Source of the DNA: Bacteroidaceae bacterium
GTDB taxonomy: Bacteria > Actinomycetota > Coriobacteriia > Coriobacteriales > CADBOM01
Assembly: GCA_963624975.1 (NCBI GenBank)
Contig: CAVFRF010000063.1
Coordinates: forward strand, 2,882 to 66,881
Length of the DNA: 64,000 nucleotides
Direction of reading: 5' to 3'
Below the pieces are notes generated by a model. That model searched no databases. It saw only the letters and a program-made list of their open reading frames with translations, and was not told where the DNA came from. The position numbers and the translations under genes were made by a program. Positions 7,699-45,655 of the stretch are shown one piece after another; the stretch's first letter is position 1, and each line of letters begins with the position of its first letter.

Positions 7699-7907
7699 GA
7701 GCGGTCTGACAGATGGCCCGATGACTTGCCGGTATGGTCGCGAACGTCATATTTAGCGAAAATGCAGACGGAATCTCCGCATAGTTGCAGCATCGGCCGC
7801 TGCATGCGGGTAAAATGGTGCGGTTACTGTTTTTCGGGGTTTGAGGTATCTGGCTGCATGCGGCGTGAGTGGGGCTGCCGCGCGGCTTTGGCGTAAGGAC
7901 ATCTTCT

Positions 7908-11172: not shown

Positions 11173-11313
11173 TCCTTGCTGCGGCTCGTGATGTTTCTCG
11201 CCTGCCGATGCTTTGGTGTGGGATGAATCGCCAATGTTGCGTACAATATATGCACGACTGTGGTATGGGGAGCCTTGCTCGATTGAACGTTATTGGATAA
11301 AGGGGTACGGAGT

Positions 11314-12501
11314 ATGTCAGACAGCTCGATGCAGACAGAGGCGATGCCGCGCGTTTCGGTGATAGTGCCGGCCCACAATGCCGAGAAATATCTCGACCAA
11401 TGCCTGCAGAGCATACTCGGGCAAACCGAGCGCGACATCGAGGTCGTGTGCGTAGACGACGGCTCCACCGACTCCACGCCGGAGATGCTGGCCAAAGCCG
11501 CCGAAGCCGACCCGAGGGTGTGCGTGATAACCCAGGAGTGCGCGGGAGCGGGGGCAGCGCGCAATGCGGGCCTTGCCGTTGCGCACGGCGAATACCTGTC
11601 GTTTCTGGATGCAGACGACTTTTTCGAGCCAGAGATGCTCAAGGACGCTGCCGACAAGCTGGACCAGACCGGTGCCGACATCGTGGCATATGGCAGCTGG
11701 CAATACGACGAGAGCAGGCAATCCAACAGGCAGGCCAAGTGGCTTCTCAAGACCGAGAATCTTCCCGATGGAGATTGCCATGGGCGCGACGAGCTGAAGA
11801 CATGCCTCTTCAACACATTTGGAAACGAAGCTTGGAGCAAGCTCATGCGCGCCTCGTTCGTGCGCGAGCACGACCTGCGTTTCCAGACGATCTCTCGAGC
11901 CAACGACATGTTCTTCACATGCAGCGCGTTGGCGGTGGCCGAGAACATTGCGGTGATCGACAAATGCTACGTGCATTACCGGGTTGGCACGGGCACGAAC
12001 TTGCAGGCGACCAACGATAGGGACCCGCTCGCATTTCTCGATGCGTGCCTCGCGCTAGACGATTATTTGACGGCCAATGGCCTGAAGGACGAGCTGTACC
12101 AGAGCTACTGCAATCTCCTGCTGGATGGAATCGTCTACAACAGCGATTCGTTCAAATCCGTCGATACGCTTTCTGTGTTGGCCGACGCGCTGCGCACGCG
12201 CGTGGAACCTCGGTTCGAGTTGCTCAAGCTCGAAGGGGACGACCGCATCAGCCAGGACAACCTGCAGCGCTATCGCGACCTGATGGAGCTGGATACGGTG
12301 GACTATCTGTTCAAGCGAATGAAGGCCCTCAAGAGCGACCTCGAAGATTCCTATTGGTACATGGACTGGCTCGAGTGGAAGAACTGGAAGAGCGAGCGCG
12401 AGTCCGAAGAACGCATCGCCAAGCTTGAATTCGAATTGGACGAAGCTCGCAGTACGTTTGGCTACCGCGTGTGGAGCAAGGTCAGCAAGCCTCGCGGCTA
12501 G
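11314..12501 (+). CDS. Glycosyltransferase family 2 with a C-terminal coiled-coil extension
   Basis: PRVSVIVPAHNAEKYLDQCLQSILGQT...VCVDDGSTDST...FLDADD are GT-A motifs. ATG 11314 is preceded by AAGGGG. Confidence 0.85.
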   Translation: MSDSSMQTEAMPRVSVIVPAHNAEKYLDQCLQSILGQTERDIEVVCVDDGSTDSTPEMLAKAAEADPRVCVITQECAGAGAARNAGLAVAHGEYLSFLDADDFFEPEMLKDAADKLDQTGADIVAYGSWQYDESRQSNRQAKWLLKTENLPDGDCHGRDELKTCLFNTFGNEAWSKLMRASFVREHDLRFQTISRANDMFFTCSALAVAENIAVIDKCYVHYRVGTGTNLQATNDRDPLAFLDACLALDDYLTANGLKDELYQSYCNLLLDGIVYNSDSFKSVDTLSVLADALRTRVEPRFELLKLEGDDRISQDNLQRYRDLMELDTVDYLFKRMKALKSDLEDSYWYMDWLEWKNWKSERESEERIAKLEFELDEARSTFGYRVWSKVSKPRG

Positions 12502-25244: not shown

Positions 25245-26753
25245 ATGACCAGCACAAGATTCAACTCAAAAAGGAGCACAGCACTCGTTTTGCCGCTTCT
25301 CGTTGCTGTTCTGGCCGCCGCGATGTGGTGCCTGATGGTGCCCGTGCTGGCGCAAGCCGACGAGCAGGGCATAGTGGCACACTCGGTGGACGATTCGGGC
25401 ACCCGCATCGACTACTACTCGGTCGACGATGCCATCAATGCCGGATACGAAGGCAAGACCATCGTCATGGACGCGAATTGGAACTCCTACAGCGCGCTGG
25501 TCATCTCCTACGGCAAGTCGATCACGATCGATATGAACGCTCACGAGATTTACAATTACGGGCACTCCGAGGTCATCCGCCTTTACGATAATGCCAGTCT
25601 CACTCTTATGTCGAGTGCTTCTGCCAAATTTACCTATCAGGGTTACGTCGACGGCAAATGCAGTAGGACAGGCGTGGAAGTTACCACCGGAGGCTTGGTA
25701 TCGGGTGGCTATAGCAAATCCGACGACAGTCGTTACGAAGACATTGCGGGAGGAATCATGATGGATGGTCATAGCTCCCTCACTCTCGACAACGTGGTCG
25801 TGGGAGGCAACCTTGGCGATAGGGCAGGCGGTATTCTTGCCATGGGCGACTGCTGCATCAGGATTCAGAACGGAGCCAGCGTCGAACACAACGTTGCCGT
25901 CCAAAACTATGGTGGCGGCATCACGGCGTGGGGAAATTGCGTGAACATCCTTATGGACAAGGGATTCGTCAAGAGCAACTATGGATATAACGGTGGCGGA
26001 ATCAGCGTGCTCGACGATGGCGCCACGATCAGCATGAAGAACAAATCTGCTATCTCGGGCAATCATGCAACAAACAACGGCGGTGGCGTGTTCTTCGACA
26101 ATACTTTCTTTCAGATTATGTCCGAAGATAGAACCGCCTCTATCGATGGCAATAGCTGCGACAACGAAGGAGGCGGGGTATACACAGCCTCCGTCAGCGA
26201 TGACAACGACGGTCTCATCGTAGATACCGCGATCGCCGATAACACTGCAGGCGTCGACGGCGGCGGCGTCTATCTCGACCAGGAAAACACGGAGATGCTC
26301 CACTGCACCATTACCGGCAATACTGCCAAGGAGGATGGCGGCGGAGTATATGTGTGCAACGACGAGAACAAAATCGCGGACTGCACCATCACCGGCAACG
26401 TGTGCAACGACGGTGGCGATAACTACGAGGGCGGCGGCGTGTTCGTGGGCTACAGGTACGACCTGAACCTCACAGGCAAGTGCGTTATCAAGGACAATAC
26501 CCGCGGAAAGAACGGTTCGGCAGACGACCTGTTCCTCAGCGCCAACGTGGGCAACACCGCCAGCGCCTACATCACCGGCGGCGTGGACCTCGGGTCGAAG
26601 GTGGGGATCCGCACCGGCATCACCGGCGACCAGCGCATCGGCGACCACATTGGAATATACGCCGAAGGGGTGTACTTTGCAGATCTCGGTGGCTACTACG
26701 TGAGCCACGGCGACGACCACGGCGGAGACCTGTGGCAGCGTCACCACGACTAA
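25245..26753 (+). CDS. Secreted right-handed beta-helix repeat protein (Pmp-repeat-like), paralog 1
   Basis: Signal peptide ending VLAQA-DEQ. Reiterated motifs NGGGISV, NNGGGVFFDNTFF, NEGGGVYTAS, VDGGGVYL, EDGGGVYVCN and YEGGGVFVG are typical of parallel beta-helix / polymorphic-membrane-protein repeats. Confidence 0.75.
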   Translation: MTSTRFNSKRSTALVLPLLVAVLAAAMWCLMVPVLAQADEQGIVAHSVDDSGTRIDYYSVDDAINAGYEGKTIVMDANWNSYSALVISYGKSITIDMNAHEIYNYGHSEVIRLYDNASLTLMSSASAKFTYQGYVDGKCSRTGVEVTTGGLVSGGYSKSDDSRYEDIAGGIMMDGHSSLTLDNVVVGGNLGDRAGGILAMGDCCIRIQNGASVEHNVAVQNYGGGITAWGNCVNILMDKGFVKSNYGYNGGGISVLDDGATISMKNKSAISGNHATNNGGGVFFDNTFFQIMSEDRTASIDGNSCDNEGGGVYTASVSDDNDGLIVDTAIADNTAGVDGGGVYLDQENTEMLHCTITGNTAKEDGGGVYVCNDENKIADCTITGNVCNDGGDNYEGGGVFVGYRYDLNLTGKCVIKDNTRGKNGSADDLFLSANVGNTASAYITGGVDLGSKVGIRTGITGDQRIGDHIGIYAEGVYFADLGGYYVSHGDDHGGDLWQRHHD

Positions 26754-26874
26754 CGGCCTGGCTGCGGTCCATAGCAAATTCAATTAAACTGGGTTGGTGG
26801 TTTCGACGCGGGGGATATGCCTGATTCATAACTAATGCGAATGAGAAGCGAGAGCAGATAGAAGGGAGCGCGTT

Positions 26875-28947
26875 ATGGGTAAAACGAGAGGCACTTTAAG
26901 ATGGTGGGCAGCTCCCGGGATGCTGCTTCTTGCGACTGTGCTGATCGCCGTGGCGTGGTGCTCGTCGGCGCCTGCCCAAGCGCGCGCCGACGAGCAGACC
27001 GTGGTGGCTCACACGATGAACGAATCGGAGACCCATATCGACGACTACTACTACTCGATCGACGAGGCCATCAACGCCGGATACGAAGGCAAGGTCATCG
27101 TCATGGACGTTGACTGGAACCTCAACAGCACTCTGACCATCGCCGCCAACAAGTCGATCACCATCGACATGAACGGTTGCCGGATCAGCAACAATGGCAA
27201 CCTCGAGGTCATCCGCCTCAAGAGCCATTCCAACCTCACGCTCATGTCGGGCCTTTCTGCCAGGCTCACCTACAAGGGCTACACCGATGGCAAGGAGAAC
27301 ACGACCGACGTGCAGGTCGTTACCGGCGGCTTGGTAACGGGTGGCCGCAACAAGGCCGAAGACCGCCGCAAGTACTCCTACTCTGCAGGCGGAGTCGTGA
27401 TGGATGCCAACAGCGTTCTTACCCTCGACAACGTGGTCGTGGGAGGAAACACTGGAGACAGGACGGGCGGAATCGTTGCCGATGAGGGCTGCACAGTCAA
27501 TCTCCAGAACGAAGCCAGCGTCGAGTACAACGGCTGCGGCGATGAAGCTGCAGGCGGCATCACGGCATGGAAAGACAACGTGACCATCAACATGGACAAT
27601 AGCTTCATCAAAAACAACTATGGCTACAACGGTGGCGGCATCTGCTCGCAAGACAACAACACCAAGGTCAACATGAAGAACGGCTCCGCCATCTCCAACA
27701 ACTATGCCCAGAACAACGGCGGAGGCGTGTTCTTCGACGACACTTTCTTCAGCCTCAGCTCCGAAGACGGCAAGGCCACCATCAATGGCAATTCGTGCGG
27801 CAACGATGGCGGCGGCATCTACACTGCATCCGATGCCGGGTCCAACGAGGGTCTCGTCCAGAACCTCGCCATCACCGGTAACACTGCTTATGTGGATGGC
27901 GGCGGCATCTACCTCGACCAGGAGAGCACCGGCGTGGTCAAGTGCACGATCACGGGCAATACCGCCAAGGAGGACGGCGGCGGCGTGTACGTGTGCAACG
28001 ACGACAACCACATCATGAGCTGCGCCATCACCGGCAACGTGTGCAACGACGACGGCAAGAACTACGAGGGCGGCGGCGTGTTCGTGGGATACAAGTACGA
28101 CCTGGGTCTCACCGGCAAGTGCATCATTCGGGGCAACACCCGCGGAAAGAACGGCTCCGACGACGACCTGTTCCTCAGCGCCAACGTGGGCAACACCGCC
28201 AGCGCCTACATCACCGGCGGCGTGGACCTCGGGTCGAAGGTGGGGATCCGCACCGGCATCATCGGCGACCAGCGCATCGGCGACCACGTCACGACCTACG
28301 CCTACGGGGCTTACTTCATCGATCTCGACGGCTACTACGTGAGCCATGGCGACGACCACGGCGGCGACCTGTGGCAGCGCCACCGCAACGTCCTGTTCAA
28401 CGTGAGCGTCAACGGCCAGAACTCCGACCGCACCCAGCAGGGCACGACCATAACGGTGCACGCCGGCAGCGGCGGGGAGGGCGAGGAGTTCGCCTACTGG
28501 GACGCAGAGGCCACGACGGGCCTCTACCCCGTGGAGGATTACATCAACGACGAGACCAAGTACAACGAGGAACTGACGTTCGACATGCCGCAGAACGACG
28601 TGAACGTGGTTGCGGTGTACAAGGCGGCCGGCTCCGGCGACGAGGCCGATGCCAGCAGCGAGGCCGAGGGTGCCGAGGATGCCGTCATCGCGGCCGACGC
28701 ATCTGCGGCACCTGCCTACGAGGCCGATTCCGGCACGTCGAGCGCTCAAGCGGACTCGGGCAGCGCGGCGCAGGCCTCGGACGGTAGCCAGTCCGGCAGC
28801 GCAAGTTCTACTGGCAGCTCCGAATCGACCAGCGCGGATTCGTCCAGCGCAGCAAGCTCTGCCAGCTCCACTGCCGCGCAGGCTCCGGTTCACGTGAAGA
28901 TCCCGAAGGTGACCCTCTGGAACGGACAGAGAATAAGGATGCTCTAG
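26875..28947 (+). CDS. Secreted beta-helix repeat protein, paralog 2, with an extra beta-sandwich-like module and a Ser/Ala-rich tail
   Basis: Colinear with 25245-26753 through ...GGDLWQRH. It then has about 190 additional aa: FNVSVNGQ...FAYWDAEAT...VNVVAVYKA resembles a Listeria-Bacteroides/InlB B-type repeat, followed by an S/A/D/G-rich low-complexity tail. No LPXTG motif. Confidence 0.75.
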   Translation: MGKTRGTLRWWAAPGMLLLATVLIAVAWCSSAPAQARADEQTVVAHTMNESETHIDDYYYSIDEAINAGYEGKVIVMDVDWNLNSTLTIAANKSITIDMNGCRISNNGNLEVIRLKSHSNLTLMSGLSARLTYKGYTDGKENTTDVQVVTGGLVTGGRNKAEDRRKYSYSAGGVVMDANSVLTLDNVVVGGNTGDRTGGIVADEGCTVNLQNEASVEYNGCGDEAAGGITAWKDNVTINMDNSFIKNNYGYNGGGICSQDNNTKVNMKNGSAISNNYAQNNGGGVFFDDTFFSLSSEDGKATINGNSCGNDGGGIYTASDAGSNEGLVQNLAITGNTAYVDGGGIYLDQESTGVVKCTITGNTAKEDGGGVYVCNDDNHIMSCAITGNVCNDDGKNYEGGGVFVGYKYDLGLTGKCIIRGNTRGKNGSDDDLFLSANVGNTASAYITGGVDLGSKVGIRTGIIGDQRIGDHVTTYAYGAYFIDLDGYYVSHGDDHGGDLWQRHRNVLFNVSVNGQNSDRTQQGTTITVHAGSGGEGEEFAYWDAEATTGLYPVEDYINDETKYNEELTFDMPQNDVNVVAVYKAAGSGDEADASSEAEGAEDAVIAADASAAPAYEADSGTSSAQADSGSAAQASDGSQSGSASSTGSSESTSADSSSAASSASSTAAQAPVHVKIPKVTLWNGQRIRML

Positions 28948-31700: not shown

Positions 31701-32486
31701 CTAATCGTGAGTTTTGTGGTCGCGGTAATTGGCAAGATAGCCTGCGAACTCCTCGCTCGTGTCGGAGTTGCCCTCGCGCCACATCTTGTGGTCGATGATC
31801 TCGCCGGCGTTGCCTCCATAATATGCATCGATGTATGCAATCAGCGAGTCTAGGGCCTCGAGCTGCTCTTCGGGATAATCCCCCTCGCCTCCGATGTGGA
31901 TCATCTCGATGCCAACCGACCACGCATTCATCCCATAGTCGGTATAGTGGCTGGTTGGCTTTTGCCCGAGCAGGTCGTCACGGCCGTCTTCCTCGATGCC
32001 GAAGCGCGAATTGGCATCTCCGCTGCCCCAGCCTGCGTGATGCCCGATCTTGTCGAGGGGCACGCATTGCACGATGTGGCCGTCTTTGCCGATCACGAAA
32101 TGCGCGGCGATGAGGTTGCCGTTGTTCTCCCACGAAGACACAACGCCTTCGGGAGTGCCACCGCCCTCGGTGTCGTGGAGCACGATGTACTTCTGATAGG
32201 CAGCGCCTTTGTCGCCATGCTGGAAGTCGTCGTAGTACATCTCGGTGATGTCGGGCTTGCTCGCCTCGGCAGACGCATTGGCATCGTCAGCAGCGGCATC
32301 TCCGCCGGAAGTCGATTCCGCTGCTTGCGTATCGGCGATGTTGGACACATCCACCTCGCTGGTGCTAAGCTCTCCGCTCGCACAGCCAGCGCCGGCAAGA
32401 ACGGTCGCAAGCGCTGCAAGAGCCACAGCTGCCAACAAAACCCTGAAGCGAAGGCGTTTCGCCTTGCCGTTGCCCATTGCCGCCAT
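31701..32486 (-). CDS. N-acetylmuramoyl-L-alanine amidase (Amidase_2/PGRP fold) lipoprotein
   Basis: Lipobox LAGAGC after a signal peptide. AAHFVIGKDGHIVQCVPLDKIGHHAGWG is the Amidase_2 motif. Confidence 0.8.
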   Translation of the reverse strand: MAAMGNGKAKRLRFRVLLAAVALAALATVLAGAGCASGELSTSEVDVSNIADTQAAESTSGGDAAADDANASAEASKPDITEMYYDDFQHGDKGAAYQKYIVLHDTEGGGTPEGVVSSWENNGNLIAAHFVIGKDGHIVQCVPLDKIGHHAGWGSGDANSRFGIEEDGRDDLLGQKPTSHYTDYGMNAWSVGIEMIHIGGEGDYPEEQLEALDSLIAYIDAYYGGNAGEIIDHKMWREGNSDTSEEFAGYLANYRDHKTHD

Positions 32487-32539
32487 TCCTGCCCCTATCG
32501 TCCGATGCTGTTCACCTCGCCAAGCTCGGCGCGACGGCT

Positions 32540-34159
32540 CTAGCCTTCCGCCACCGTGCTGGCAGCAGGAGCCTCATCGGCACCAGCCGGCTGCCAGTCG
32601 TCGTCCATGTAGTGGTCGAACAGCTCGAGGATCTCGTCCGAAGGAGGCTCGGTGAGCTTGCTCACCACCACGTTGACCACCAGTGCCAGCAGGAAGCCGG
32701 GCAGCAGCTCGTAGATGGTGAAGATTCCGCCCACATATGCCTCGAGGATGTTCCATACGATCACGACGAGACCGCCGGTGATCATGCCGGCGAGCGCACC
32801 CTTGAGGTTGGCCCTGCGCCAGAACAGCGCAAGCAGCGTGATCGGGCCGAACGCGGCACCGAATCCGGCCCATGCGTAGGACACGATTCTGAAGATCGAC
32901 GACTCGGGGTCGCTGGCGATCACCATGCCGAACACGGTGACCGCGATGAGGGCCACACGGCTCACGAACATGATCTGCTTGTCGGTGGCCTCCTTGTTGA
33001 ACACGCCCCTGTAGATGTTGTCGGCCACGGAGCTGCCCACGATGAGCAGGTAGGAGTCCGACGAGCTCATGGTTGCGGCGAAGATGCCCGAAACCACGAT
33101 GCCGGTGAGGAACGCCGGCAGCAGCATCTTGGACACCGCGATGATGATGGTCTCGGCGCTGCTGCTGGTGAGAAGCTCGGTGGGGATGAGCGCACGGCCG
33201 AGCAGACCGACGCTGATGGCCAGCGTGAGCGAGATAACGCACCAGATGATGGCGATACGACGCGACTTCTTGATGTTGTCGGGGTTGTCGATGCCCATGA
33301 ACCTCACCAGCACCTGCGGCACGCCGAAGTAGCCCAGACCCCACGACAGGGTGGAGATGATGGTGATCAGGCCGAAGTCGGCGGCTTCGCCGAACACGGG
33401 CTGGCCGCCAACGACCTGCTGGACTCCGCTGGCGTCGACCACGGGCGTGGCCTTCTGCACCGCGCTGAGGAATCCCGGGATGTCGGACAGGAACGCGATC
33501 GCGTTGTCGATGCCTCCGACGGAGGCCACGGTGCCCACGAACACGATGATCACCGCGAAGAACATCAGGATGCCCTGGATGAGGTCGGTGGTGCACACCG
33601 AGAGATAGCCGCCCGAGAAGGTGTAGATGAACACGACGAGCGCGCCGACGATCATCATCACGCCGTAGTCGAGGCCGAACACGCTGGAGAAGAGCTTGCC
33701 GCAAGTGGCGAAGCAGCTGCCCACGTACACGGAGAGGAACAGCAGGATGATGAGTGCCGACACCGTCATGAGGATGTTCTTCTTGTCGCCGAAGCGGTTG
33801 GAGTAGAACGCGGGCACGGTGATGGCGTTGCCGGCCTTCTCGGAGTACTTGCGCAGGCGCTTGGCCACCAGCAGCCAGTTGAGGTAGGTGCCGATGGCAA
33901 GGCCGATGCCCGTCCACATGGCCTCGCTGGCTCCGCAGAAGTAGGCCACGCCGGGCAGGCCCATGAGCAGCCATCCGCTCATGTCGGAGGCCTCGGCCGA
34001 AAGCGCCGTGACCCACGGACCCAGCTGCCTGCCTCCCAGGAAGTAGTTCTCGGACGACTCGTTCGATCGCTTGGCAAAGTAGAAGCCGACTATCAACATT
34101 CCGATGATGTAGACGGCAATCACTATGAGTACGATCATGTCGTTGCTGCTCATGCTCAC
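32540..34159 (-). CDS. putP: Sodium:proline symporter (SSS family)
   Basis: YFLGGRQLGPWVTALSAEASDMSGWLLMGLPG is the PutP/SSS signature. About 13 TM helices. Confidence 0.85.
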   Translation of the reverse strand: MSMSSNDMIVLIVIAVYIIGMLIVGFYFAKRSNESSENYFLGGRQLGPWVTALSAEASDMSGWLLMGLPGVAYFCGASEAMWTGIGLAIGTYLNWLLVAKRLRKYSEKAGNAITVPAFYSNRFGDKKNILMTVSALIILLFLSVYVGSCFATCGKLFSSVFGLDYGVMMIVGALVVFIYTFSGGYLSVCTTDLIQGILMFFAVIIVFVGTVASVGGIDNAIAFLSDIPGFLSAVQKATPVVDASGVQQVVGGQPVFGEAADFGLITIISTLSWGLGYFGVPQVLVRFMGIDNPDNIKKSRRIAIIWCVISLTLAISVGLLGRALIPTELLTSSSAETIIIAVSKMLLPAFLTGIVVSGIFAATMSSSDSYLLIVGSSVADNIYRGVFNKEATDKQIMFVSRVALIAVTVFGMVIASDPESSIFRIVSYAWAGFGAAFGPITLLALFWRRANLKGALAGMITGGLVVIVWNILEAYVGGIFTIYELLPGFLLALVVNVVVSKLTEPPSDEILELFDHYMDDDWQPAGADEAPAASTVAEG

Positions 34160-34250
34160 TCCAGTCGAATTGGCATGCCCGGACGCGCCGGGTGTTCATG
34201 CGATGTGCTTGATGCGGGAAATCCGCTTGCGCGCAGACGGTCTCGCAGCC

Positions 34251-34271
34251 GTTTTGCCCGACGGGCAAAAC
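34251..34271 (-). terminator. Hairpin GTTTTGCCC-gac-GGGCAAAAC downstream of the dGTPase-like gene
   Basis: Perfect 9-bp stem read directly, 80 nt after the stop at 34351. No U-tail, so only a tentative terminator. Confidence 0.3.
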
Positions 34272-34350
34272 AACGCGCAAGCGCAGATTCTATATGTGTT
34301 TATTGTGAAGAATGCCCGCGTACACCACTAGAGCCGCCGAGTAGCCGCGC

Positions 34351-35622
34351 TTAGTCGAAATACGGCACATATAGGTCGGCATGGCTCTTTGGATCGTTGG
34401 GAAACAGGTGCCGGTACAGCTCCACGAAGTAGTCGTCGGTCATCGAGGCGATGAAGTCGCACACGATGTCGTCGTGCGAAGTGTGATCGGCATAGCCCGG
34501 ATTGCGATGCTCGACGAACCACGCGTGCACATGATGCTCGAAGATAAGCGAGCTTTCGTCGCCGCGCTCGAGGTCGGTCAGCAGGCGCTGGTACATCTCG
34601 GACATCATGGGACGCACGATGTTTTCGAGCTTGCCGCCCGTTGCGGAGTCGTAGTCGTACACGCCCGCGAAATTGCCCTTCTTGAGTCTGCGGATCTCGT
34701 CCGAAACCTCCTCGTCCATGCAGATGCAGTCGCGCCCGATCGAGTTCTTCACGATGTTGAGCGTAACATTGGCCATGACCTCGCTGTTGGTGGACCCGAG
34801 GAAGCTGTCGAACTCGTACTGCGATTTGTCCAGTACCCCGGCGCTGATGGCATCCTGGCGGTCCTTGCCGAGGTAGGCCAATATGTCGCTGATGCGCACC
34901 ACGCAACCCTCGAGCGTGCTGGGGCGAAGACAGCTGCTGCGCCCCTCCTGCGTGTAGCATTCTTCCAGCAGCAGGTCGAGGTCGGCGAAGCTCGGGCATG
35001 GACTTGGCGAGTAGGTTGCGAAGTTGTTCTCGCCGCAGTGGCACAGGATTCCGTTGTAGGTTTGCAGCGACAGGTTGCAAGGCGCCACGCTTCGAAGCGC
35101 CCGCACGCTGTGCACGTTGTGGTTGAAGTATCGTCCGGTGCGCTCATGGTAGATTGCGTTGAGGAAGCGCTCTCCCTCGTGTCCAAAGGGGGTATGGCCA
35201 GCATCGTGACCTAGGCCTATCGCCTCGATCAGGGGGAGATTGAGGCGCAGCGCCGCTCCAATCTTCTTGGCCGTCTGCGCAACCAGCTGGATATGGAATC
35301 CGCGGCGCGACAGGTCGTCGTTGGCAAACAGCGAGAACACCTGCGTCTTGTCGAAGGTGCGCTTGAAGAACGGGTTGTTGAGGATGCGGTCCACGTCGCT
35401 TAGGTAGGGAGAGCGGATGAAGAACTGCCCGCTTGCAATTTCGTCTTGCAGCAGCTCGCCGGCAGTCGCATCGGCACCCGCCGGGGCCACACTCTCGTAG
35501 ACTGCATCGGCATCGCGTGCGGCAGCCGCAGCCATTGTCCGCTGCCCGTTTTCGAACCCTTCGCGCAGGTAGTCGATCTGGTCGCTGTCCAGCTTGAAAA
35601 GCGGATTGCTGCTGTCGGTCAT
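34351..35622 (-). CDS. HD-domain dNTP triphosphohydrolase (dGTPase family)-like protein
   Basis: GLGHDAGHTPFGHEGE (the HD...H motif) and RISDILAYLGKDRQDA match the dGTPase-family metal and allosteric motifs. ATG 35622 is preceded by GGAAGGGACGGAG. The longer track ORF (to 35835) overlaps the upstream gene. Confidence 0.8.
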   Translation of the reverse strand: MTDSSNPLFKLDSDQIDYLREGFENGQRTMAAAAARDADAVYESVAPAGADATAGELLQDEIASGQFFIRSPYLSDVDRILNNPFFKRTFDKTQVFSLFANDDLSRRGFHIQLVAQTAKKIGAALRLNLPLIEAIGLGHDAGHTPFGHEGERFLNAIYHERTGRYFNHNVHSVRALRSVAPCNLSLQTYNGILCHCGENNFATYSPSPCPSFADLDLLLEECYTQEGRSSCLRPSTLEGCVVRISDILAYLGKDRQDAISAGVLDKSQYEFDSFLGSTNSEVMANVTLNIVKNSIGRDCICMDEEVSDEIRRLKKGNFAGVYDYDSATGGKLENIVRPMMSEMYQRLLTDLERGDESSLIFEHHVHAWFVEHRNPGYADHTSHDDIVCDFIASMTDDYFVELYRHLFPNDPKSHADLYVPYFD

Positions 35623-35641
35623 GATTGCTCCGTCCCTTCCT

Positions 35642-37471
35642 CTACTGCGAGGTGAAGAACCTGAAGACCTTCTTGACCTTGTCGTAGCCCTCCAGCGGGA
35701 ACGGCGTCTTGCGCCAGCCCTTGAGCGACGAGCCGTCGCTGCCCGACGCCACGATGCGGCGCGTTCCGAACTCCTCGAGGCCGCGCATGCCGCCGATCGT
35801 GCCGTTGCCTGCGGTTCCTGTGGCCGAGTGGGCACCCTTGCGGTTGGCGATCTGCATCATGCAGTCGTTTATGCAACCCTGCCCGAACTGCACGTTTAGC
35901 ATCGCGAACTGCTCGGTTTCCTTGTCGGAGCTGAACATGTAGAAAGCGGGCGGCGTGGGCAGCTGGTTGATGCGCTCGAAGGCCTCTTCCGGCCTCTCGA
36001 AAGTGCCGACCACGAGAATAGGTCCCACGATCTGCTTCTTGAACAGCGGGTTGTCGATGGAGTCGCACAGCACCACGGTGGGGGCGATGCGCAGGGTCTT
36101 CGCGTCGTGCTGCCCTCCGTAGATGATCTGCGCCTTGGAGCCTATGCTGCCCAGAAGCTCGCACGCCTGGTCGAACTCCCTGCGCGAGAACATGCGCGGG
36201 TAGCCCTTGGAGTGAATCGGATCCTTGCCGTAGATGCGCTCGATGTAGGCGAAGGTGCGGTTCACGAACGTCTTGTGCACGCTCTCGTTCACGAACGCGA
36301 AGTGCGGCGTGTAGCGGGTCTGCCCCGCATGGAGCATCTTGCTCCACATGATCTTCTCGGCGGCCGACTCCAGGTTGGCGGTCGCGTCCACGAAGCAGGC
36401 GTTGTTGCCGTCTAGCAGCATGGTGGCAGGTGCGCTTGCATCCAAGCTGGCCTCGCGCACCACGCGGGCGTTCTTGCGCGGACCCACGTAGCAGAACTTG
36501 TCGAAATGCGTGGTGAGCAGCACCGCGTCCATGTCGGCCCCGCCGAACACGAACCTCGCGTACTCCGGCTTGAACAGCTCGTCGAGTGCCGCCGCCAGCA
36601 CCTCGTTGCAGCGTTTGGTGCGTCCAGAGTTCTTGAGCACCACGGTGTTGCCCGCGGCCAGCGCCTCGGCCATCAGGATCACGGACATCGCCACCGGGCT
36701 CTCCCACGAATTGATGATGCACACCGTGCCATGCGGCTGCCAGCTCTCGGTATAGGAGACGGGCAGCAGGTCCTTCTCGACGCCCATCTTGCCGGGGTTG
36801 CAGAACTTCTCGATGTTCTTGCGCAGCACCTTGAACTCGGCGTGCACGGGCGCAAGCTCGGTTAGGTACGCCTCGTATCGGGTGATGCCCAGGTCGAGGT
36901 GGATGGCCTCGATGAGCGGGGTCTCGTATTTGTCGATGAGGGAGTGGAGCCTGCCCAGCGCGGTCTTGCGCCAGTCGGGCTTGATGGTCGTGCCGGTCCT
37001 GAAGAACTCGCGCTGCTTGTCGTGAAGCTCCGAGATGGTGCCGGCGGTGCCCGCGATGTTGTTGTCTTCCACGGTGAAGGTGCACCTCGGGCGCTGCGGC
37101 TTTGCGGGCGCGTGCTCGACGATCAGCCCCTCGGCGGCGATATCGTCGTCGGCATCGGGGTCGGCAGCTGTGACGACCTCGGTGTCGGCTTCGGGCTCGG
37201 GTTCGGGAGCGATGTCGGCCACGTCCGCGGGTTCGACTTCCGACTCGGGAGCATCTGCGGATTCGGCCTCGGCTTCCGTTTCGGGAGCAGCTGCTTCGAC
37301 ACTCGCCGTGTCGACAGCCTCGACGGCTTCGGTGGGCTCCGCCGCCACGGTCTCGGCCACCTTCACACGCAACGAGCCTTCGATCCAAACGCTGGGATCC
37401 GCAACCTCGACCGGTTTTGCGGCATCCTTCGTCGAGCTTCGATCGACCTGCTTCTTGCGTACGTTGGCCAT
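35642..37471 (-). CDS. Aldehyde-dehydrogenase-fold protein lacking catalytic residues, with a ~150-aa acidic low-complexity N-terminal extension
   Basis: Colinear with class-3 ALDH but with WNYP->WESP, LELGGKSP->MLLDGNNA, GQTC(V)APDY->GQTRYTPHF, YTGSTxVGK->YVGPRKNAR and EEIFGP->KQIVGP. ATG 37471 is preceded by RBS GGGAGAAAGG. Confidence 0.8.
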   Translation of the reverse strand: MANVRKKQVDRSSTKDAAKPVEVADPSVWIEGSLRVKVAETVAAEPTEAVEAVDTASVEAAAPETEAEAESADAPESEVEPADVADIAPEPEPEADTEVVTAADPDADDDIAAEGLIVEHAPAKPQRPRCTFTVEDNNIAGTAGTISELHDKQREFFRTGTTIKPDWRKTALGRLHSLIDKYETPLIEAIHLDLGITRYEAYLTELAPVHAEFKVLRKNIEKFCNPGKMGVEKDLLPVSYTESWQPHGTVCIINSWESPVAMSVILMAEALAAGNTVVLKNSGRTKRCNEVLAAALDELFKPEYARFVFGGADMDAVLLTTHFDKFCYVGPRKNARVVREASLDASAPATMLLDGNNACFVDATANLESAAEKIMWSKMLHAGQTRYTPHFAFVNESVHKTFVNRTFAYIERIYGKDPIHSKGYPRMFSRREFDQACELLGSIGSKAQIIYGGQHDAKTLRIAPTVVLCDSIDNPLFKKQIVGPILVVGTFERPEEAFERINQLPTPPAFYMFSSDKETEQFAMLNVQFGQGCINDCMMQIANRKGAHSATGTAGNGTIGGMRGLEEFGTRRIVASGSDGSSLKGWRKTPFPLEGYDKVKKVFRFFTSQ

Positions 37472-37722
37472 GATGCGCCTTTCTCCCTGAGGCTCGCCTC
37501 GTTGTTTCCAGCGTGATTTCCACCTTTGAAGTTTAGCTTTCGAAACGTTAAAACTCCAAAACGCAAACTGCGGAAGTCATTGCAGATACAATTGAGCGAA
37601 GCATACACGATGCAATGTGCTGCGGCGTAGTGGCAAAGACTCGCGCTGGGCTGGGCGCGATCGCAAGGGTTGGCAATGGCGCGGATCTGCGAGGCTTGCC
37701 GGCAGCAGCGCAAAACTAACTT

Positions 37723-39051
37723 GTGGAGAGGCGGCTGAAGGTACATATGTATATGTGCGGAGATGAAAAGACTGGCGGTGGGTCGTTGGAGTCGAGCGAT
37801 GTGCAACCTGACGATGCGCAGCTCGACATTCCGAGGCTGGTTCTGGCTTCGCAATCGCCCCGCAGGCGCGAGCTTCTGGCGCGCGCCGGAGCGAGTTTTT
37901 GCTGCCTGGTGCCCAACGTCGACGAGGACGTCGACTCCGCGGTGGATGCAGAACATGCCGCGGTCGAGGTAGCCTCGCGCAAGGCCCATGCGGCTGCGAA
38001 CATGCTCTCGGGCAACCTGGGCCCTTGCGCGGTGGTGGCATGCGACACCATGGTGGTTGTCGGAGGCATCGCTGACGGCACCGAGGAACAGATCTTGGGC
38101 AAGCCGGCGGATGCCGACGACGCGCGCAGGATGTTGAGGATGCTCTCGGGCACGGCCCATCGGGTGGTGAGCGGCGTGTGCATCTTGAGCGGGGTGGTAG
38201 ATGGCTCTGACCTCAATGAGGTGAGTTTCGCCGAGACCACGCGCGTGACGTTCAAGCAGCTCGACGACGAGCAGATCGACACATATATAAGCACGGGCGA
38301 GCCCTTCGACAAGGCGGGCGCATATGGCATCCAGGGTGCAGCCGGCGCTTTCGTCGAGAATGTCGACGGCGACTACGACAACGTGGTGGGTCTGCCGCTC
38401 TCGCGAACGCTGGAGGCGCTGAGCAAGATGCAGGCTTCGGCAGCGAGCATCGTGCCGGCACTATCGGAGAAGGCAGCGGTGCGCAGCCAGATGAAGGCCA
38501 TCAGACAGTCAATCTCGCCGGCCGACAGGGCTGCTGCCTCCGAACAGGCATGCCGGCATATCATGGAGACCTCCGAGTTCCAAAACGCCAAGGTAGTTGC
38601 GGCATTCTGTGCATTTGGCAGCGAGCTTTGCTTCGACTACATGGCCACGCATCTGCCGCTAGGCAAGGTTTTCGCTGTGCCCATCACCATGCCCGACCAC
38701 AGGATGGAGTTCGTGGCCATCGATCCCCTGCAAATTCTGCCAGGCAACAGGACGCTCCCGTTCTTGGCCGACCCTGCCGGCATAGCGAGCATTCCAAGCG
38801 ATTCCGAGGTGCTCGAAGCCTCGCAGGTCGACCTCATGCTGGTGCCTGGACTCGCCTTCGACGAGCGCGGTTTTCGCATCGGATATGGCGGCGGCTACTA
38901 CGACGTGTACATGAACCGCGAGGGCTTCCACGCGACGTGCTTCGGAACGTTCTTCGAGCAGCAGCACTACTTTGGCTGCCTGCCTCGCGATCCGCACGAC
39001 ATGTCGCTTCACGCAGTGGCCACGCAGCAGGGCATCCGCAGGTTCGCGTAA
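37723..39051 (+). CDS. Fusion protein: Maf nucleoside-triphosphate pyrophosphatase (N-terminal) plus 5-formyltetrahydrofolate cyclo-ligase (C-terminal)
   Basis: N-terminal half: LVLASQSPRRRELL...GKP...AGAYGIQG...VVGLPL (Maf). C-terminal half: KAAVRSQMKAIRQ...VAAFCAFGSE...DLMLVPGLAFDERGFRIGYGGGYYD (MTHFS). One continuous frame. The exact start (GTG 37723 or downstream ATGs) is uncertain. Confidence 0.8.
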   Translation: MERRLKVHMYMCGDEKTGGGSLESSDVQPDDAQLDIPRLVLASQSPRRRELLARAGASFCCLVPNVDEDVDSAVDAEHAAVEVASRKAHAAANMLSGNLGPCAVVACDTMVVVGGIADGTEEQILGKPADADDARRMLRMLSGTAHRVVSGVCILSGVVDGSDLNEVSFAETTRVTFKQLDDEQIDTYISTGEPFDKAGAYGIQGAAGAFVENVDGDYDNVVGLPLSRTLEALSKMQASAASIVPALSEKAAVRSQMKAIRQSISPADRAAASEQACRHIMETSEFQNAKVVAAFCAFGSELCFDYMATHLPLGKVFAVPITMPDHRMEFVAIDPLQILPGNRTLPFLADPAGIASIPSDSEVLEASQVDLMLVPGLAFDERGFRIGYGGGYYDVYMNREGFHATCFGTFFEQQHYFGCLPRDPHDMSLHAVATQQGIRRFA

Positions 39052-42551: not shown

Positions 42552-42826
42552 GAGCTATGTAAGTAATCTAGATGACAAAGCAACAACGAATAATCGAGAG
42601 CATCGACTTGGCAAATATGCTAAAGCTCTTGGCGTTCGGGTTGCCAAAATCACTGGGTTAGGTGCATTTTTACAATATTTGTGCTTTAGCCATCATGAGG
42701 GCATCCTAGGGGGATTGCTCGAAAGGGAAACAGGCCTCTTTTGTATGATCTATGAAAGCGGCTTTTCTTTTGGGAGCAGGTAATCATGATGACTAGGAAG
42801 GCAAACTTCAAAAGGAGGGTCAAGCA

Positions 42827-44260
42827 GTGAGAAACGAAAGAGAAATCAAGCGCGACGAGGAAATCGTAGAGAAGATTCACCAGAATTCTCTCAGGCTGCT
42901 CGAGGAGGTGGGTCTGCACTTCGACGACCAGAGCGCACTCGATTTCATGGCCAGCAAGGGCATCAAGGTCGAGGGCAGCCGCGCCTTCTTCACCGAGAAG
43001 CAGATCATGGACGCGCTTGACGTGACCACCAAGGACTTCACCATCCACGCCCGCAACCCCAAGTACGACGTGAAGATGAACATGGAGGACCTCTACATGA
43101 CCCCGGGCTACGGCAGCCCGTTCATCGTGGAGGCCGACGGCACCGTGCGCAACGGCAAGCTCGACGACTTCATCAAGCTGGCCGACATCGTGCAGGCATC
43201 CGACGAGTTCTGCATCAACGGCGGCATCCTCGTGCAGCCCGACGACATCGACGCAGCCATTTCGGCCGAGATCATGGCATACGCCACGCTGTGCCGTTCC
43301 GACAAGACCTTCTTCTCCATCTGCGGCGACGGCCAGGTTGCCGACAATATCTTCGAGATGGTCGAGATCGTGTTCGGTCGCGACATCACCGACTTCCCCT
43401 GCACCATCAACCTCATCTCGCCGATCGCCCCGCTTGGCGTGCCGCAGAACGCTAGCGAGACCGTGAGGGAGAGCGCTCTCAAGGGCCAGCCGCTGGCAAT
43501 CGGCCCCGCTCCCATGGCCGGCACCACCGGACCTATCTCGCTGGCAGGCAATATCTCGGTGGCCAACGCCGAGGTTCTGGGACTCAACGTGTACGCACAG
43601 CTCGTGCGTCCGCACACCCCGCTCATCTACACCTATGCCGGAACCGTGTCCGACATGTCGAGCATGGCAGTGTCCAACTGCTGCCCCGGCTTCAACATGG
43701 AGGCCCGCTACGGCTCCTACATGGCCAAGAAGTACGGCCTGCCCTGCCGCAGCGGCGGCGGAATGTCCGACGCGGCGGGCTTCAACGCGCAGGCCGGCGT
43801 GGAGAGCGGCATCAACTTCTTCGAGGCGTTCTCGGAGAAGGCCAACCTCATGATGCATGCAACCGGCTCGCTGCAGTCGTTCCTCTACGTGAGCTACGAG
43901 AAGTTCATCATGGACATCGAGACCTTCACCCGCATGAAGTACTACTTCTCCGACATGCCCTGCGACGAGGACGCCCTCGCCTTCGACGTGATTCAGGAGG
44001 TCATCGAGGACGGAGAGTCGTTCCTCACCACCGACCACACCGCCGAGCGTTGCAGGATCGACCCGTGGACTCCGCAGGTTTCGCTTCACAAGAACGCGGC
44101 CGGCAACCCCGTCGACGAGCTGAACGACTCGATCCACGCCAGGATCGACTACCTGCTCGAGAACAACGTGGTGCCCGAGCTTGACCCCGACACCCGCGCC
44201 AAGCTCGATGCCGTGATCAAGCGCATCGGTATGAAGGAAGAGGACATGGCCAGGATCTAG
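42827..44260 (+). CDS. MttB-superfamily methyltransferase, non-pyrrolysine type (quaternary-amine:corrinoid methyltransferase candidate)
   Basis: EEIVEKIHQNSLRLLEEVGLHFDDQSALDFMASKGIKVEGSRAFF...FTIHARNPKYDV matches the Pfam MTTB N-terminal pattern. 477 aa with no in-frame TAG. GTG start preceded by AAAAGGAGGG. Confidence 0.85.
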   Translation: MRNEREIKRDEEIVEKIHQNSLRLLEEVGLHFDDQSALDFMASKGIKVEGSRAFFTEKQIMDALDVTTKDFTIHARNPKYDVKMNMEDLYMTPGYGSPFIVEADGTVRNGKLDDFIKLADIVQASDEFCINGGILVQPDDIDAAISAEIMAYATLCRSDKTFFSICGDGQVADNIFEMVEIVFGRDITDFPCTINLISPIAPLGVPQNASETVRESALKGQPLAIGPAPMAGTTGPISLAGNISVANAEVLGLNVYAQLVRPHTPLIYTYAGTVSDMSSMAVSNCCPGFNMEARYGSYMAKKYGLPCRSGGGMSDAAGFNAQAGVESGINFFEAFSEKANLMMHATGSLQSFLYVSYEKFIMDIETFTRMKYYFSDMPCDEDALAFDVIQEVIEDGESFLTTDHTAERCRIDPWTPQVSLHKNAAGNPVDELNDSIHARIDYLLENNVVPELDPDTRAKLDAVIKRIGMKEEDMARI

Positions 44261-44413
44261 GCCCGCATGTCCGCTACGAAATAGCAAAAGGCGCCGCCGG
44301 AGGCGCGCGGAACGGGACTCGGAGGGTGACCGCCCGCGCGCCCGGGGCGCAAGGAGGGAGGTCCCGCGCTTCCGATGGGGAGCCGGGACGTTAAACACAG
44401 AAAGGCAGTTCGA

Positions 44414-45655
44414 ATGAGTGCAGTAAAGAAGTACGGAACGCTGCTGCTGCTGGCATGCGCGCCGGCGTTCATCTTCACGCTCCCCTACATCAGGGAGTCG
44501 TTCTACGTGCCGATCCAGACCGCGATGAACCTCACCAACGCCCAGATGGGCTCGCTCACGGCGTGGTACGCCATCGTGGCCACCCCGGCCTACCTCTTCG
44601 GCGGCATCGTGGCCGACAAGTTCCCGCCCAGGCTCATGATCACCTTCTCGCTGGTGTCCACGGGCCTGCTGGGTCTGTGGTTCTCCACGTTCCCGGGCTA
44701 CGAGGCCTGCCGCATCATCTTCGCCCTCATGGGCCTCACCACGGTGCTCACGTTCTGGAGCTCGGTGATCAAGGCCGTGCGAATGCTCGGCACGCCCGAG
44801 GAGCAGGGACGCCTCTACGGCCTGCAGGAGGGCCTGCGCGGCTTCCTCAACGCCGCCCTCGTGTTCGTGATGGCCTTCATCTACGGCCAGTTCGCCGACG
44901 GCATCGACGGAGCCACCTGGGCCATCAGGTTCTGCGCCATCCTTCTGATCGTGCTGGGTATCATCGGCTTCATCATCCTGTCCAAGGGCAACGACGACGA
45001 GAAGTCCGAGCCCATCGGCCAGCTGCTGCTGGGCATGGTCAAGTGCTTCAAGATTCCCAGGGTCTGGCTGCTCGTGGCCATCATCTTCACCGCCTACAGC
45101 GTCTACGCGCTCATGAGCTACGTCAACACCTACGCGGTCACGTTCTGCGGCCTCAGCGAGACCGACGCCGCCAACCTCGGCGGCATCCGCTACTGCATGC
45201 AGGGCCTCGGCGGCATCGCCGGCGGCTTCCTGGCCGACAAGATCCACTCGCGCCTCAAGGTCATCGGCGGCGCGGGCGTGCTGCTGGCCATCAGCTACTG
45301 CGCGTTCTTCTTCATCCCGGCCGAGGCATCTGCCCTCGTGGCCGTGCTGATCAACTTCATGGTCGGCGTCATGCTCGTGTACACCATCCGAAGCCTCTAC
45401 TTCTCAACCATCTCGGAGGCCAACATCGACGAGTCGATCACGGGCCGCGTCTCGGGCATCATGTCCACCCTGGGCTACCTGCCCGACGTGTTCCTGCTCA
45501 CCCTCACCGGCATGTGGATCGACTCCTACGCCGGAACCACCGGCTACATGATGGTGTTCGGCTACGCCGCCGTGATGGGCATCCTGTGCACGATCATCTC
45601 GCTGATCCTGCTCAAGATCGTCAAGAAGGACAACGGCAAGACCATCAAGGCTTAA
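44414..45655 (+). CDS. MFS transporter
   Basis: About 413 aa with 12 TM helices and the MFS layout (a charged central loop between helix 6 and helix 7). ATG 44414 lies within the track ORF. Confidence 0.8.
   Translation: MSAVKKYGTLLLLACAPAFIFTLPYIRESFYVPIQTAMNLTNAQMGSLTAWYAIVATPAYLFGGIVADKFPPRLMITFSLVSTGLLGLWFSTFPGYEACRIIFALMGLTTVLTFWSSVIKAVRMLGTPEEQGRLYGLQEGLRGFLNAALVFVMAFIYGQFADGIDGATWAIRFCAILLIVLGIIGFIILSKGNDDEKSEPIGQLLLGMVKCFKIPRVWLLVAIIFTAYSVYALMSYVNTYAVTFCGLSETDAANLGGIRYCMQGLGGIAGGFLADKIHSRLKVIGGAGVLLAISYCAFFFIPAEASALVAVLINFMVGVMLVYTIRSLYFSTISEANIDESITGRVSGIMSTLGYLPDVFLLTLTGMWIDSYAGTTGYMMVFGYAAVMGILCTIISLILLKIVKKDNGKTIKA

Follow-up and report, generated by a model that had tools for sequence, protein, structure and literature searches.

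A conserved Coriobacteriales protein with the class-3 aldehyde dehydrogenase fold and a predicted dead active site, encoded next to a dNTPase-family gene in a pairing that is not conserved

We analyzed a stretch of 64,000 nucleotides (nt), here called the window (GenBank assembly GCA_963624975.1, contig CAVFRF010000063.1, positions 2,882 to 66,881; lineage Coriobacteriales), which carries on its minus strand a gene for a 609-residue protein with the fold of aldehyde dehydrogenases (ALDHs). Our analyses predict that this protein (pseudo-ALDH) is a conserved pseudo-dehydrogenase and not the product of a decaying gene. It would be a lineage-specific pseudoenzyme derived from a class-3 ALDH, with the fold kept and the residues for thioester chemistry and canonical NAD(P) binding gone. 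The next gene encodes an HD-domain protein of the deoxynucleoside triphosphate (dNTP) triphosphohydrolase (dNTPase) family. That the pseudo-ALDH gene lies beside it is best read as a chance of local gene order that followed the loss of a gene. An earlier sequence-only reading of the window had described the two open reading frames (ORFs) just as we find them (609 and 423 residues, 19 nt apart, both on the minus strand) and had proposed a conserved pseudo-dehydrogenase paired with a dNTPase. The conservation stands and the pairing does not.

The pseudo-ALDH is a structural member of class 3 of the ALDH superfamily. Residues 145–569 match PF00171 (Pfam) at 158 bits (cut-off 23). The best sequence matches in the PDB are Staphylococcus aureus AldH (6k0z, E-value 1e-60) and human ALDH3A1 (3sza and 8bb8, about 1e-51), and the class-3 ALDH matches, with E-values from 1e-60 to 1e-46, are colinear over about 430 residues. 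Foldseek comparison of the AlphaFold2 (AF2) model with the class-3 structures 6k10, 1ad3, and 3sza gave template modeling (TM) scores of 0.86–0.87. These results agree with the colinearity over about 450 residues claimed by the sequence-only reading. The protein ends in an ordinary class-3 C-terminal tail, as in bacterial ALDH3-like proteins, and its loop at 534–557, which borders the entrance for the substrate, varies in sequence and has low model confidence.

The active site was read residue by residue against 6k0z and ALDH3A1, and again after alignment to 67 canonical ALDH3-like homologues. In the canonical proteins the oxyanion Asn, the general-base Glu, the nucleophilic Cys, the NAD-ribose Glu, and the Phe at position 482 occur in 67 of 67, and the second Gly of the cofactor loop in 65. 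The pseudo-ALDH has WESP for WNYP, MLLDGNNA for LELGGKSP, GQTRYTPHF for GQTCVAPDY, GPRKNA for GSTGVG, and KQIVGP for EEIFGP (single residues in Table 1). It has Val at 482, where family members carry I/V/T/F. The Thr at position 329 of the cofactor FTG loop is V/C/I in the family, and position 479, Glu in 55 of the 67 canonical proteins, is Lys in 14 family members and Arg in three. The five classes of substitution listed by the sequence-only reading all proved correct, and alignment to 6k0z and ALDH3A1 places none of the catalytic Cys, Glu, and Asn at its position. Retained features are K280, W256, G330, the GQ of the Cys loop, and the PT and GP motifs. No NCBIfam equivalog of a named ALDH was reached; the best score was 184 bits against a cut-off of 550 (MdlD benzaldehyde dehydrogenase, NF045701).

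Judged by its residues, the protein thus appears to lack every functional feature of an aldehyde dehydrogenase that we looked for, that is, the Cys, the Glu and Asn, and the cofactor elements. Neither the canonical FTG-x-x-x-x-G loop nor the EEIFGP motif is preserved. As the residues for thioester chemistry and canonical NAD(P) binding are lost, the pseudo-ALDH is not expected to oxidize aldehydes. A second ALDH gene, which could have supplied an active heterodimer partner, was sought within the window and not found.

The family is small. A search of 5.8 billion proteins returned 16 clusters at 478–1364 bits, with lengths of 592–826 residues, followed at 261 bits or less by ordinary ALDHs of 450–460 residues. 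When 1.84 billion representatives were searched with the profile and without filters, six family representatives were found together with P0361 (482 residues) and the fragment P0362, and canonical enzymes followed at 414 bits or less. A metagenome scan with the family profile added only two more short contigs, L060 and L061. The total is about 18 clusters, all from Coriobacteriales. Their named sources are metagenome-assembled genomes (MAGs) of Coriobacteriales or Coriobacteriaceae and one Senegalimassilia MAG, from gut and rumen. The identical 609-residue protein occurs on five independent contigs, and the window matches the MAGs GCA_963587155.1 and GCA_963628975.1.

Conservation within the family is strong and follows a new pattern. 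The 17 full-length members, which share 41–99% identity, have 90 invariant columns. Arg stands at the Cys position in every one of them, and also in P0361 and P0362, which settles the question raised by the sequence-only reading of whether this exchange is kept among homologues. The general-base Glu is present in none of the 17. Canonical enzymes have 100 positions with conservation of at least 85%. The family keeps 47 of them and has switched 8 to another fixed residue (K196I, L251C, P255S, P281N, V307F, F328Y, N381H, and C386R). The other 45 have relaxed; among these are the catalytic Asn and Glu, the Glu for the ribose, and the FGG loop. Another 33 positions are newly constrained, including N137, N138, G141, R284, R287, N289, and R544. 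The active-site loop is strongly conserved in the new form GKM[IL]HAGQTR, with H381 in 16 members and Q384 and R386 in all 17. Acidic residues are lost at 283, 352, 390, and 480; Glu is lost at 283, and Asp is replaced by Ser or His at 390.

The true start of the gene is the ATG at 37471, because 13 family loci start at the equivalent codon after a ribosome-binding site (RBS), with synonymous variation. The first seven codons at these loci read ATG GCN AAY/GAA GTN CGN/CAA AAR AAR, with third positions varying synonymously, and a purine-rich, RBS-like stretch lies at the equivalent position in all 13 (GGGAGAAAGG in the window). A strong RBS had been put forward earlier as support for translation of the N-terminal segment, and the RBS together with the conserved start codon upholds that view. 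All 17 full-length proteins begin MA(N/E)V(R/Q)KK (MANVRKKQVDRS in the window), with M1, A2, V4, K6, and K7 invariant and N3 nearly so. Given the synonymous variation at third codon positions in the 13 loci, this peptide is conserved at the protein level. No other gene starting with a MANVRKK-like peptide was found in about 250 kb of related DNA, within which the motif is confined to genes of the pseudo-ALDH family.

The peptide is followed by an acidic linker. Residues 1–130 consist of 69% A/E/V/D/P against 31% in the ALDH domain, and the stretch preceding the NNxxG motif has a net charge of −24. AF2 confidence (predicted local distance difference test, pLDDT) is below 50 at residues 1–25 and 31–126. 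The N-terminal segment of about 150 residues rich in E/A/P/V/D, noted by the sequence-only reading, is therefore confirmed as acidic, and as disordered in the AF2 model, over residues 1–126. In relatives, the N-terminal region has 112–354 residues and is unalignable, net acidic throughout, and poor in hydrophobic residues.

Some further features of this region were seen. Most relatives have a weak, short hydrophobic motif, [IV]x[IVF][EDG]G, about 25–35 residues from the N-terminus, and at the corresponding SVWIEG of the window protein there is a small rise in pLDDT, residues 26–30 lying outside the segments below 50. Distant members carry a K/R/E-rich linker segment that the window protein lacks; in P0008, this segment (residues 161–208) is modeled as a single long helix (AF2, pLDDT 64–79). 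P0361 has no acidic linker, yet it starts with the basic MAKARNKQ. P0411 (619 residues, from the representative search) is an intact ALDH3-like protein of another lineage (SPWNYP, LELGGKSP, GQTCVAPDY, EEVFGP) with a K/E-rich N-terminal extension of about 170 residues that starts MAETKKN and is probably disordered. N-terminal tethers on class-3 ALDHs may thus be older than the loss of catalysis. Encapsulation or microcompartment targeting of the PduP type was considered for the N-terminal peptide and rejected; the peptide is basic and forms no amphipathic helix, and there are no shell genes nearby.

Scans of the flanking DNA were largely negative. Rfam searches of the whole window (gathering threshold) and of 37300–37900 (E-value up to 5) gave no riboswitch or leader, and within 32300–38000 there was neither a sigma-70 consensus match nor a terminator on the coding (minus) strand. 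A block about 58–92 nt 5' of the pseudo-ALDH gene, TTTGGAGTTTTAACGTTTCGAAAGCTAAACTTC, is common to close relatives only and is probably the promoter. It travels with the pseudo-ALDH gene, since it is also present in Senegalimassilia loci where ruvC is the upstream gene. No family-wide upstream DNA motif was found in the 13 family loci. The spacer between the pseudo-ALDH and HD genes (AGGAAGGGACGGAGCAATC) is too short for a terminator, and since the gap is only 19 nt, the two genes are almost certainly co-transcribed in the window genome, as predicted from their layout.

We favor, with moderate confidence, the interpretation that the pseudo-ALDH is a non-catalytic, ALDH3-derived binding or scaffold protein, with an anionic ligand or the protein's own acidic tail bound in its basic cleft, and with an N-terminal peptide that docks a partner. 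Selection would now act on the Arg at the Cys site, on the basic residues in the old cleft, where acidic ones have been lost, and on the basic N-terminal peptide carried by the acidic tether. R284, R287, R/K332, and K/R479 occupy what we take, from the alignment and general knowledge of ALDHs, to be the former adenosine-ribose, pyrophosphate, and nicotinamide-ribose positions. Because the charge changes concentrate at the cofactor and chemistry positions of ALDH3A1, we infer a conversion of the former cleft for cofactor and substrate into an electropositive pocket for a nucleotide, a phospho-metabolite, or the protein's own acidic tail. The N-terminal peptide, at the end of a disordered acidic tether of 110–350 residues, could then dock the protein onto a partner. 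The gene would be the first after a putative divergent promoter region shared with the gene for the Maf-MTHFS fusion protein (Table 1).

Several points weigh against this interpretation. The pocket argument maps an alignment and general ALDH knowledge onto ALDH3A1 and does not come from computed electrostatics. The 8 positions that switched and the 33 that became constrained might just as well underlie a new catalytic activity. The estimate of the distribution rests on MAG-derived data, and as the loci come from one clade, conserved gene order (Maf-MTHFS, DUF1015, HD) is inseparable from shared ancestry, so that a functional tie to any of these neighbors, the HD gene among them, may exist.

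A new catalytic activity would make the protein a neofunctionalized enzyme with a Cys-independent reaction, using H381, R386, Ser/His390, R284, and R287, perhaps on a phosphorylated substrate. The strong conservation of the GKM[IL]HAGQTR loop and the switched and newly constrained positions speak for it, and pseudoenzymes can have catalytic residues that have migrated, as noted in reviews (PMC10211241). However, there is no obvious conserved nucleophile or acid-base pair: position 257 holds Q/E/K/N, position 352 a hydrophobic residue, and position 480 varies. The cofactor loop is without its second Gly and the Thr of FTG, and the substrate-entrance loop at 534–557 is variable, with low model confidence. 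We therefore regard this alternative as unlikely.

Gene order was compared at the 13 species-level family loci (Table 1). The Maf-MTHFS gene, a fusion of the nucleotide pyrophosphatase Maf and 5-formyl-tetrahydrofolate (THF) cyclo-ligase, divergently adjoins the pseudo-ALDH gene in 10 of the 13, the Senegalimassilia-type genomes not among them. The fusion, which joins the house-cleaning of nucleotides to folate salvage in an unusual way, forms about 24 clusters among the 5.8 billion proteins, all from the same clade and contigs as the pseudo-ALDH; gene callers place its start 8 codons further on (434 residues). A DUF1015 gene follows the pseudo-ALDH gene directly in six loci, with gaps of about 50–250 nt, and is absent from the window. 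These two genes keep company with the pseudo-ALDH gene more steadily than the HD gene does. DUF1015 has been proposed to be SerBK, a serine kinase able to replace SerB, and is usually encoded after serA (bioRxiv 10.1101/2024.10.14.618325).

The pseudo-ALDH might accordingly be a partner of Maf-MTHFS, of DUF1015 (SerBK), or of both, in folate, serine, or nucleotide-pool housekeeping, and not of the HD protein specifically. The divergent adjacency in most loci, the confinement of the fusion to the same clade and contigs, and the DUF1015 gene in the position it typically takes elsewhere after the dehydrogenase gene serA (bioRxiv 10.1101/2024.10.14.618325) all point this way, and the nucleotide-pool, folate, and serine theme of the neighbors is suggestive only. 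Against it, all loci are from one clade, so that the order of the Maf-MTHFS, DUF1015, and HD genes was possibly inherited rather than selected. Senegalimassilia-type genomes split the pseudo-ALDH from Maf-MTHFS, the window and the L008 and L155 lineages have no adjoining DUF1015, and no regulatory motif common to the family was found. Such a partnership is improbable on this evidence. Quite unlikely, too, is that the pseudo-ALDH, with its former NAD(P) cleft now lined by fixed Arg and Lys, is a sensor of (d)NTP, NADP(H), phosphoserine, or a similar anion, controlling Maf-MTHFS, SerBK/DUF1015, and/or the HD protein through its N-terminal peptide.

Table 1 Features of the pseudo-ALDH region in the window, and genes around the pseudo-ALDH gene at other family loci
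Feature	Location	Coordinates	Strand	Basis or remark
HD-domain dNTP triphosphohydrolase-family gene	window	34351..35622	(-)	423 residues; Pfam HD and HD_assoc
Spacer, pseudo-ALDH to HD gene	window	35623..35641	(-)	19 nt, AGGAAGGGACGGAGCAATC; carries HD-gene RBS
Pseudo-ALDH gene	window	35642..37471	(-)	609 residues and stop; ORF, PF00171, PDB and Foldseek class-3 ALDH matches
ALDH-fold domain, residues 131-609	window	35645..37081	(-)	AF2 pLDDT about 80-95 over most of 130-530
Q480	window	36032-36034	(-)	canonical E (NAD-ribose); family K/Q/P/R/D/N
R386	window	36314-36316	(-)	canonical nucleophile C (C243 of ALDH3A1); family R 17/17
L352	window	36416-36418	(-)	canonical E (general base, E209 of ALDH3A1); family L/M/I/V
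A335	window	36467-36469	(-)	canonical G (second Gly of GxxxxG loop); family A 13/17
R332	window	36476-36478	(-)	family R14K3; canonical 13% basic, mostly T/K/E/Q/V/G
R287	window	36611-36613	(-)	R 17/17; canonical A/E/H
R284	window	36620-36622	(-)	R 17/17; canonical Y/H/L
E257	window	36701-36703	(-)	canonical N (oxyanion, N114 of ALDH3A1); family Q8 E6 K2 N1
N137-N138-x-x-G141	window	37049-37063	(-)	family-specific NNxxG, newly constrained
Acidic disordered linker, residues 8-130	window	37082..37450	(-)	composition, charge, AF2 pLDDT
Second short motif SVWIEG, residues 27-32	window	37376-37393	(-)	weak; [IV]x[IVF][EDG]G
N-terminal peptide MANVRKK, codons 1-7	window	37451..37471	(-)	peptide form MANVRKKQVDRS; conserved in 17 members
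Divergent intergenic region, pseudo-ALDH / Maf-MTHFS	window	37472..37722	(.)	Rfam none; sigma-70 none
Pseudo-ALDH RBS	window	37478..37487	(-)	GGGAGAAAGG; 6 nt before ATG at 37471
Maf and 5-formyl-THF cyclo-ligase fusion gene	window	37723..39051	(+)	PF02545 and PF01812; divergent from pseudo-ALDH
Downstream of pseudo-ALDH	window species			HD at 19 nt, then SSF
Downstream of pseudo-ALDH	L002, L006			DUF1015, then HD
Downstream of pseudo-ALDH	L004			DUF1015, BFD-domain ORF, then HD
Downstream of pseudo-ALDH	L003, L005, L007			DUF1015, then ThiF (L005, L007) and/or GlpA-like flavoprotein; no HD in available sequence
Downstream of pseudo-ALDH	L008, L155			ferredoxin, then citrate synthase; no HD in available sequence
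Surroundings of pseudo-ALDH	L001, L144 (Senegalimassilia type)			ruvCAB upstream (shown in L144); convergent P-type ATPase downstream; no HD in available downstream sequence
Downstream of pseudo-ALDH	L143, L145			contig ends just past pseudo-ALDH gene
DUF1015 gene	L002	7691-9022		directly downstream of pseudo-ALDH
DUF1015 gene	L003	7107-8411		directly downstream of pseudo-ALDH
DUF1015 gene	L004	7299-8831		directly downstream of pseudo-ALDH
DUF1015 gene	L005	7318-8904		directly downstream of pseudo-ALDH
DUF1015 gene	L006	7868-9457		directly downstream of pseudo-ALDH
DUF1015 gene	L007	7606-9030		directly downstream of pseudo-ALDH

The neighbor that had drawn attention was the HD gene. Its product scores above the cut-offs of PF01966 (29.0 bits, cut-off 22) and PF13286 (29.5 bits, cut-off 22.2), and its closest solved structure is the Thermus thermophilus dNTPase 2dqb (4e-26). 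As in this TT1383-type dNTP triphosphohydrolase, the H, HD, and D metal residues are intact (GFHIQ, GHDAGHTPFGH, RISDILAY) and the HD_assoc C-terminal segment aligns; only about 200 residues align well, and at its N-terminus the window protein carries about 65 additional residues. The assignment to dGTPase-family HD proteins with an intact metal motif was therefore sound. Scores for dGTPase equivalogs stay below their cut-offs (TIGR01353, 116 against 152 bits; NF002327, 182 against 393 bits), and we predict a member of the dNTPase family short of an equivalog-level match. Orthologues sharing about 50% identity, with source names in Eggerthellaceae, Coriobacteriaceae, and Eggerthellales, fill the match list and occur across Coriobacteriia. 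In the closest orthologue (86% identity), the HD-SSF-amidase block is kept, with a DUF6020 gene and no ALDH gene upstream; in other Coriobacteriia, the orthologue lies after dnaX-ybaB-recR or elsewhere. The HD protein is an ordinary dNTPase-family gene product of the class and probably no dedicated partner of the pseudo-ALDH. Some Coriobacteriia have two dGTPase-family paralogues; in L151, they lie within 3 kb (7001–8218, 405 residues, and 10948–12021, 357 residues), and a Y1 transposase gene adjoins the first.

Across the homologues, the pseudo-ALDH and HD genes do not form a conserved two-gene cassette. Direct adjacency is found only in the window species. At L002, L004, and L006, the HD gene lies 1.7–3.0 kb downstream, behind DUF1015, and at L001, L003, L005, L007, L008, L144, and L155 other genes follow, with no HD gene in the available downstream sequence; the L003 sequence stops about 1.5 kb past its last gene without an HD match. 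The Senegalimassilia MAG GCA_963661535.1 has the two genes on different contigs: contig 7 carries the pseudo-ALDH gene, and contig 4 the HD orthologue (76% identity), which follows rmuC. In a neighbor-joining tree of the family, the DUF1015-HD arrangement occurs on several deep branches, and the likeliest ancestral order is therefore pseudo-ALDH, DUF1015 (SerBK), HD. The window lineage would have lost DUF1015, so that the HD gene came to lie 19 nt behind the pseudo-ALDH gene and to be transcribed with it, and other lineages would have dispersed the genes.

The sequence-only reading had suggested that the ALDH shell senses a ligand and regulates the dNTPase, possibly for phage defense by dNTP depletion. 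Some observations are in keeping with a regulator. The genes are co-oriented with a gap of 19 nt and no terminator in the window; in three relatives that branch deeply (L002, L004, and L006), the HD gene also lies downstream in the same orientation, so that the linkage may be ancestral; the remodeled basic cleft would suit a nucleotide ligand; and regulated dNTPase pairs exist, such as Clover CloA-CloB, in which the partner is a nucleotidyltransferase (PMC12265719). Nevertheless, adjacency is unique to the window species, DUF1015 separates the genes elsewhere, and one MAG has them on separate contigs. In the HD orthologue with 86% identity, the HD-SSF-amidase block persists without an upstream ALDH gene, and HD orthologues are Coriobacteriia-wide against the roughly 18 clusters of the pseudo-ALDH. 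A 2026 survey of dGTPase architectures nowhere mentions aldehyde dehydrogenase (PMC13519002), and our literature search on dGTPase in Coriobacteriia gave nothing specific. With the HD protein widespread without the pseudo-ALDH, and adjacency limited to one species, we consider the regulatory role very unlikely.

The defense role fares no better. When the pseudo-ALDH, HD, Maf-MTHFS, and SSF proteins were run through PADLOC, only the HD protein matched, to a generic dGTPase model (133 bits, half of the profile). Against the curated antiphage_dGTPase model NF041026, the HD protein scored 85 bits with a cut-off of 400, and against NF003701 it scored 70 with a cut-off of 383. The neighbors in the window are housekeeping genes (SSF symporter, amidase, copper-type P-type ATPase, Maf-MTHFS, ferredoxin, and citrate synthase). 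Because of these neighbors, and because HD orthologues occur across Coriobacteriia, there is neither a defense-island or mobile context nor a patchy distribution of the HD gene. The proposed two-gene defense role is thus unsupported. Clover and the stand-alone anti-phage dGTPases are similar in that a dNTPase-family HD enzyme is encoded beside another gene whose product might regulate it (PMC12265719). In Clover, however, CloB is a nucleotidyltransferase making p3diT, and the system sits in defense islands (PMC12265719); the window pair has an ALDH-fold neighbor, a housekeeping context, and a pairing that is not conserved.

That the gene is a non-functional relic or an assembly or annotation artefact, as the loss of all catalytic residues and the restriction of the family to MAGs and metagenomes might suggest, is effectively refuted by the conservation data: the ORF is intact at every locus, the invariant columns persist at 41–99% identity, an identical protein occurs on independent contigs, the start codon, the RBS, and the N-terminal peptide persist while the codons vary synonymously, and the substitutions are ordered, with some positions switched and fixed and others relaxed.

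Other genes were seen in passing. Fused flavoproteins of more than 1050 residues, with DAO, BFD [2Fe-2S], and Pyr_redox_2 domains, are encoded at L003 (8496–11660) and L005 (9756–12968, with an extra DUF1667); they resemble the anaerobic glycerol-3-phosphate dehydrogenase complex in one chain. In the window, an 853-residue ORF at 42686–45247 (minus strand) has no Pfam match at E-values up to 1e-3, and ORFs of 502 and 690 residues at 25245–28947 (plus strand), with weak matches to the Chlamydia PMP repeat and the InlB B-repeat, probably encode surface proteins.

The interpretation as a binding or scaffold protein can be set beside known ALDH-fold proteins. The fold is common to the class-3 ALDHs (human ALDH3A1, 3sza and 8bb8; rat ALDH3, 1ad3; FALDH, 4qgk; S. 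aureus AldH, 6k0z and 6k10). The pseudo-ALDH differs from them by replacing the Asn, the general-base Glu, the Cys, the second Gly, and the Glu and Phe of EEIFGP, and by gaining basic residues in the cleft, 130 residues of N-terminal peptide and acidic linker, and the NNxxG strand. In its mode of working, the closest analogue would be vertebrate ALDH16A1, the best-known ALDH-fold pseudoenzyme, which has no catalytic triad and is thought to act by protein-protein interaction (PMC12041015). ALDH16 is of another ALDH class, is eukaryotic, and has an extra C-terminal domain resembling a cofactor-binding domain, and its bacterial orthologue is active (PMC12041015). The pseudo-ALDH, in contrast, is bacterial and class-3-derived, with a disordered extension at the N-terminus in place of an extra C-terminal domain and a fixed Arg for Cys.

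Lens crystallins also use the ALDH scaffold in a role other than aldehyde oxidation; omega-crystallin is ALDH-derived. They are abundant structural proteins of animal lenses, and nothing about the pseudo-ALDH suggests a bulk structural role. Eta-crystallin, a further case of recruitment beyond aldehyde oxidation (PMC10211241), is still an active enzyme. The serA-serBK pair shares with six family loci a dehydrogenase-fold gene followed by DUF1015, but SerA is an active 2-hydroxyacid dehydrogenase of another fold, and the window itself has no DUF1015.

Dead ALDH-fold proteins are thus known in animals (ALDH16A1 and crystallins). Our literature searches for bacterial pseudo-ALDHs and for Senegalimassilia ALDH found no description of a bacterial counterpart and nothing specific. 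The present analysis removes a false lead, as the neighboring dNTPase is no part of a new defense pair. Where NCBI gives members of the family a name, it is "aldehyde dehydrogenase family protein", a label that would mislead metabolic reconstruction for Coriobacteriales of the gut and rumen. The ordered pattern of change, from Cys to a fixed Arg, with charge reversal in the cleft and a tethered N-terminal peptide, would make the family a clean case of scaffold repurposing. If the pseudo-ALDH did act as a sensor, it would be the first bacterial allosteric regulator with an ALDH fold.

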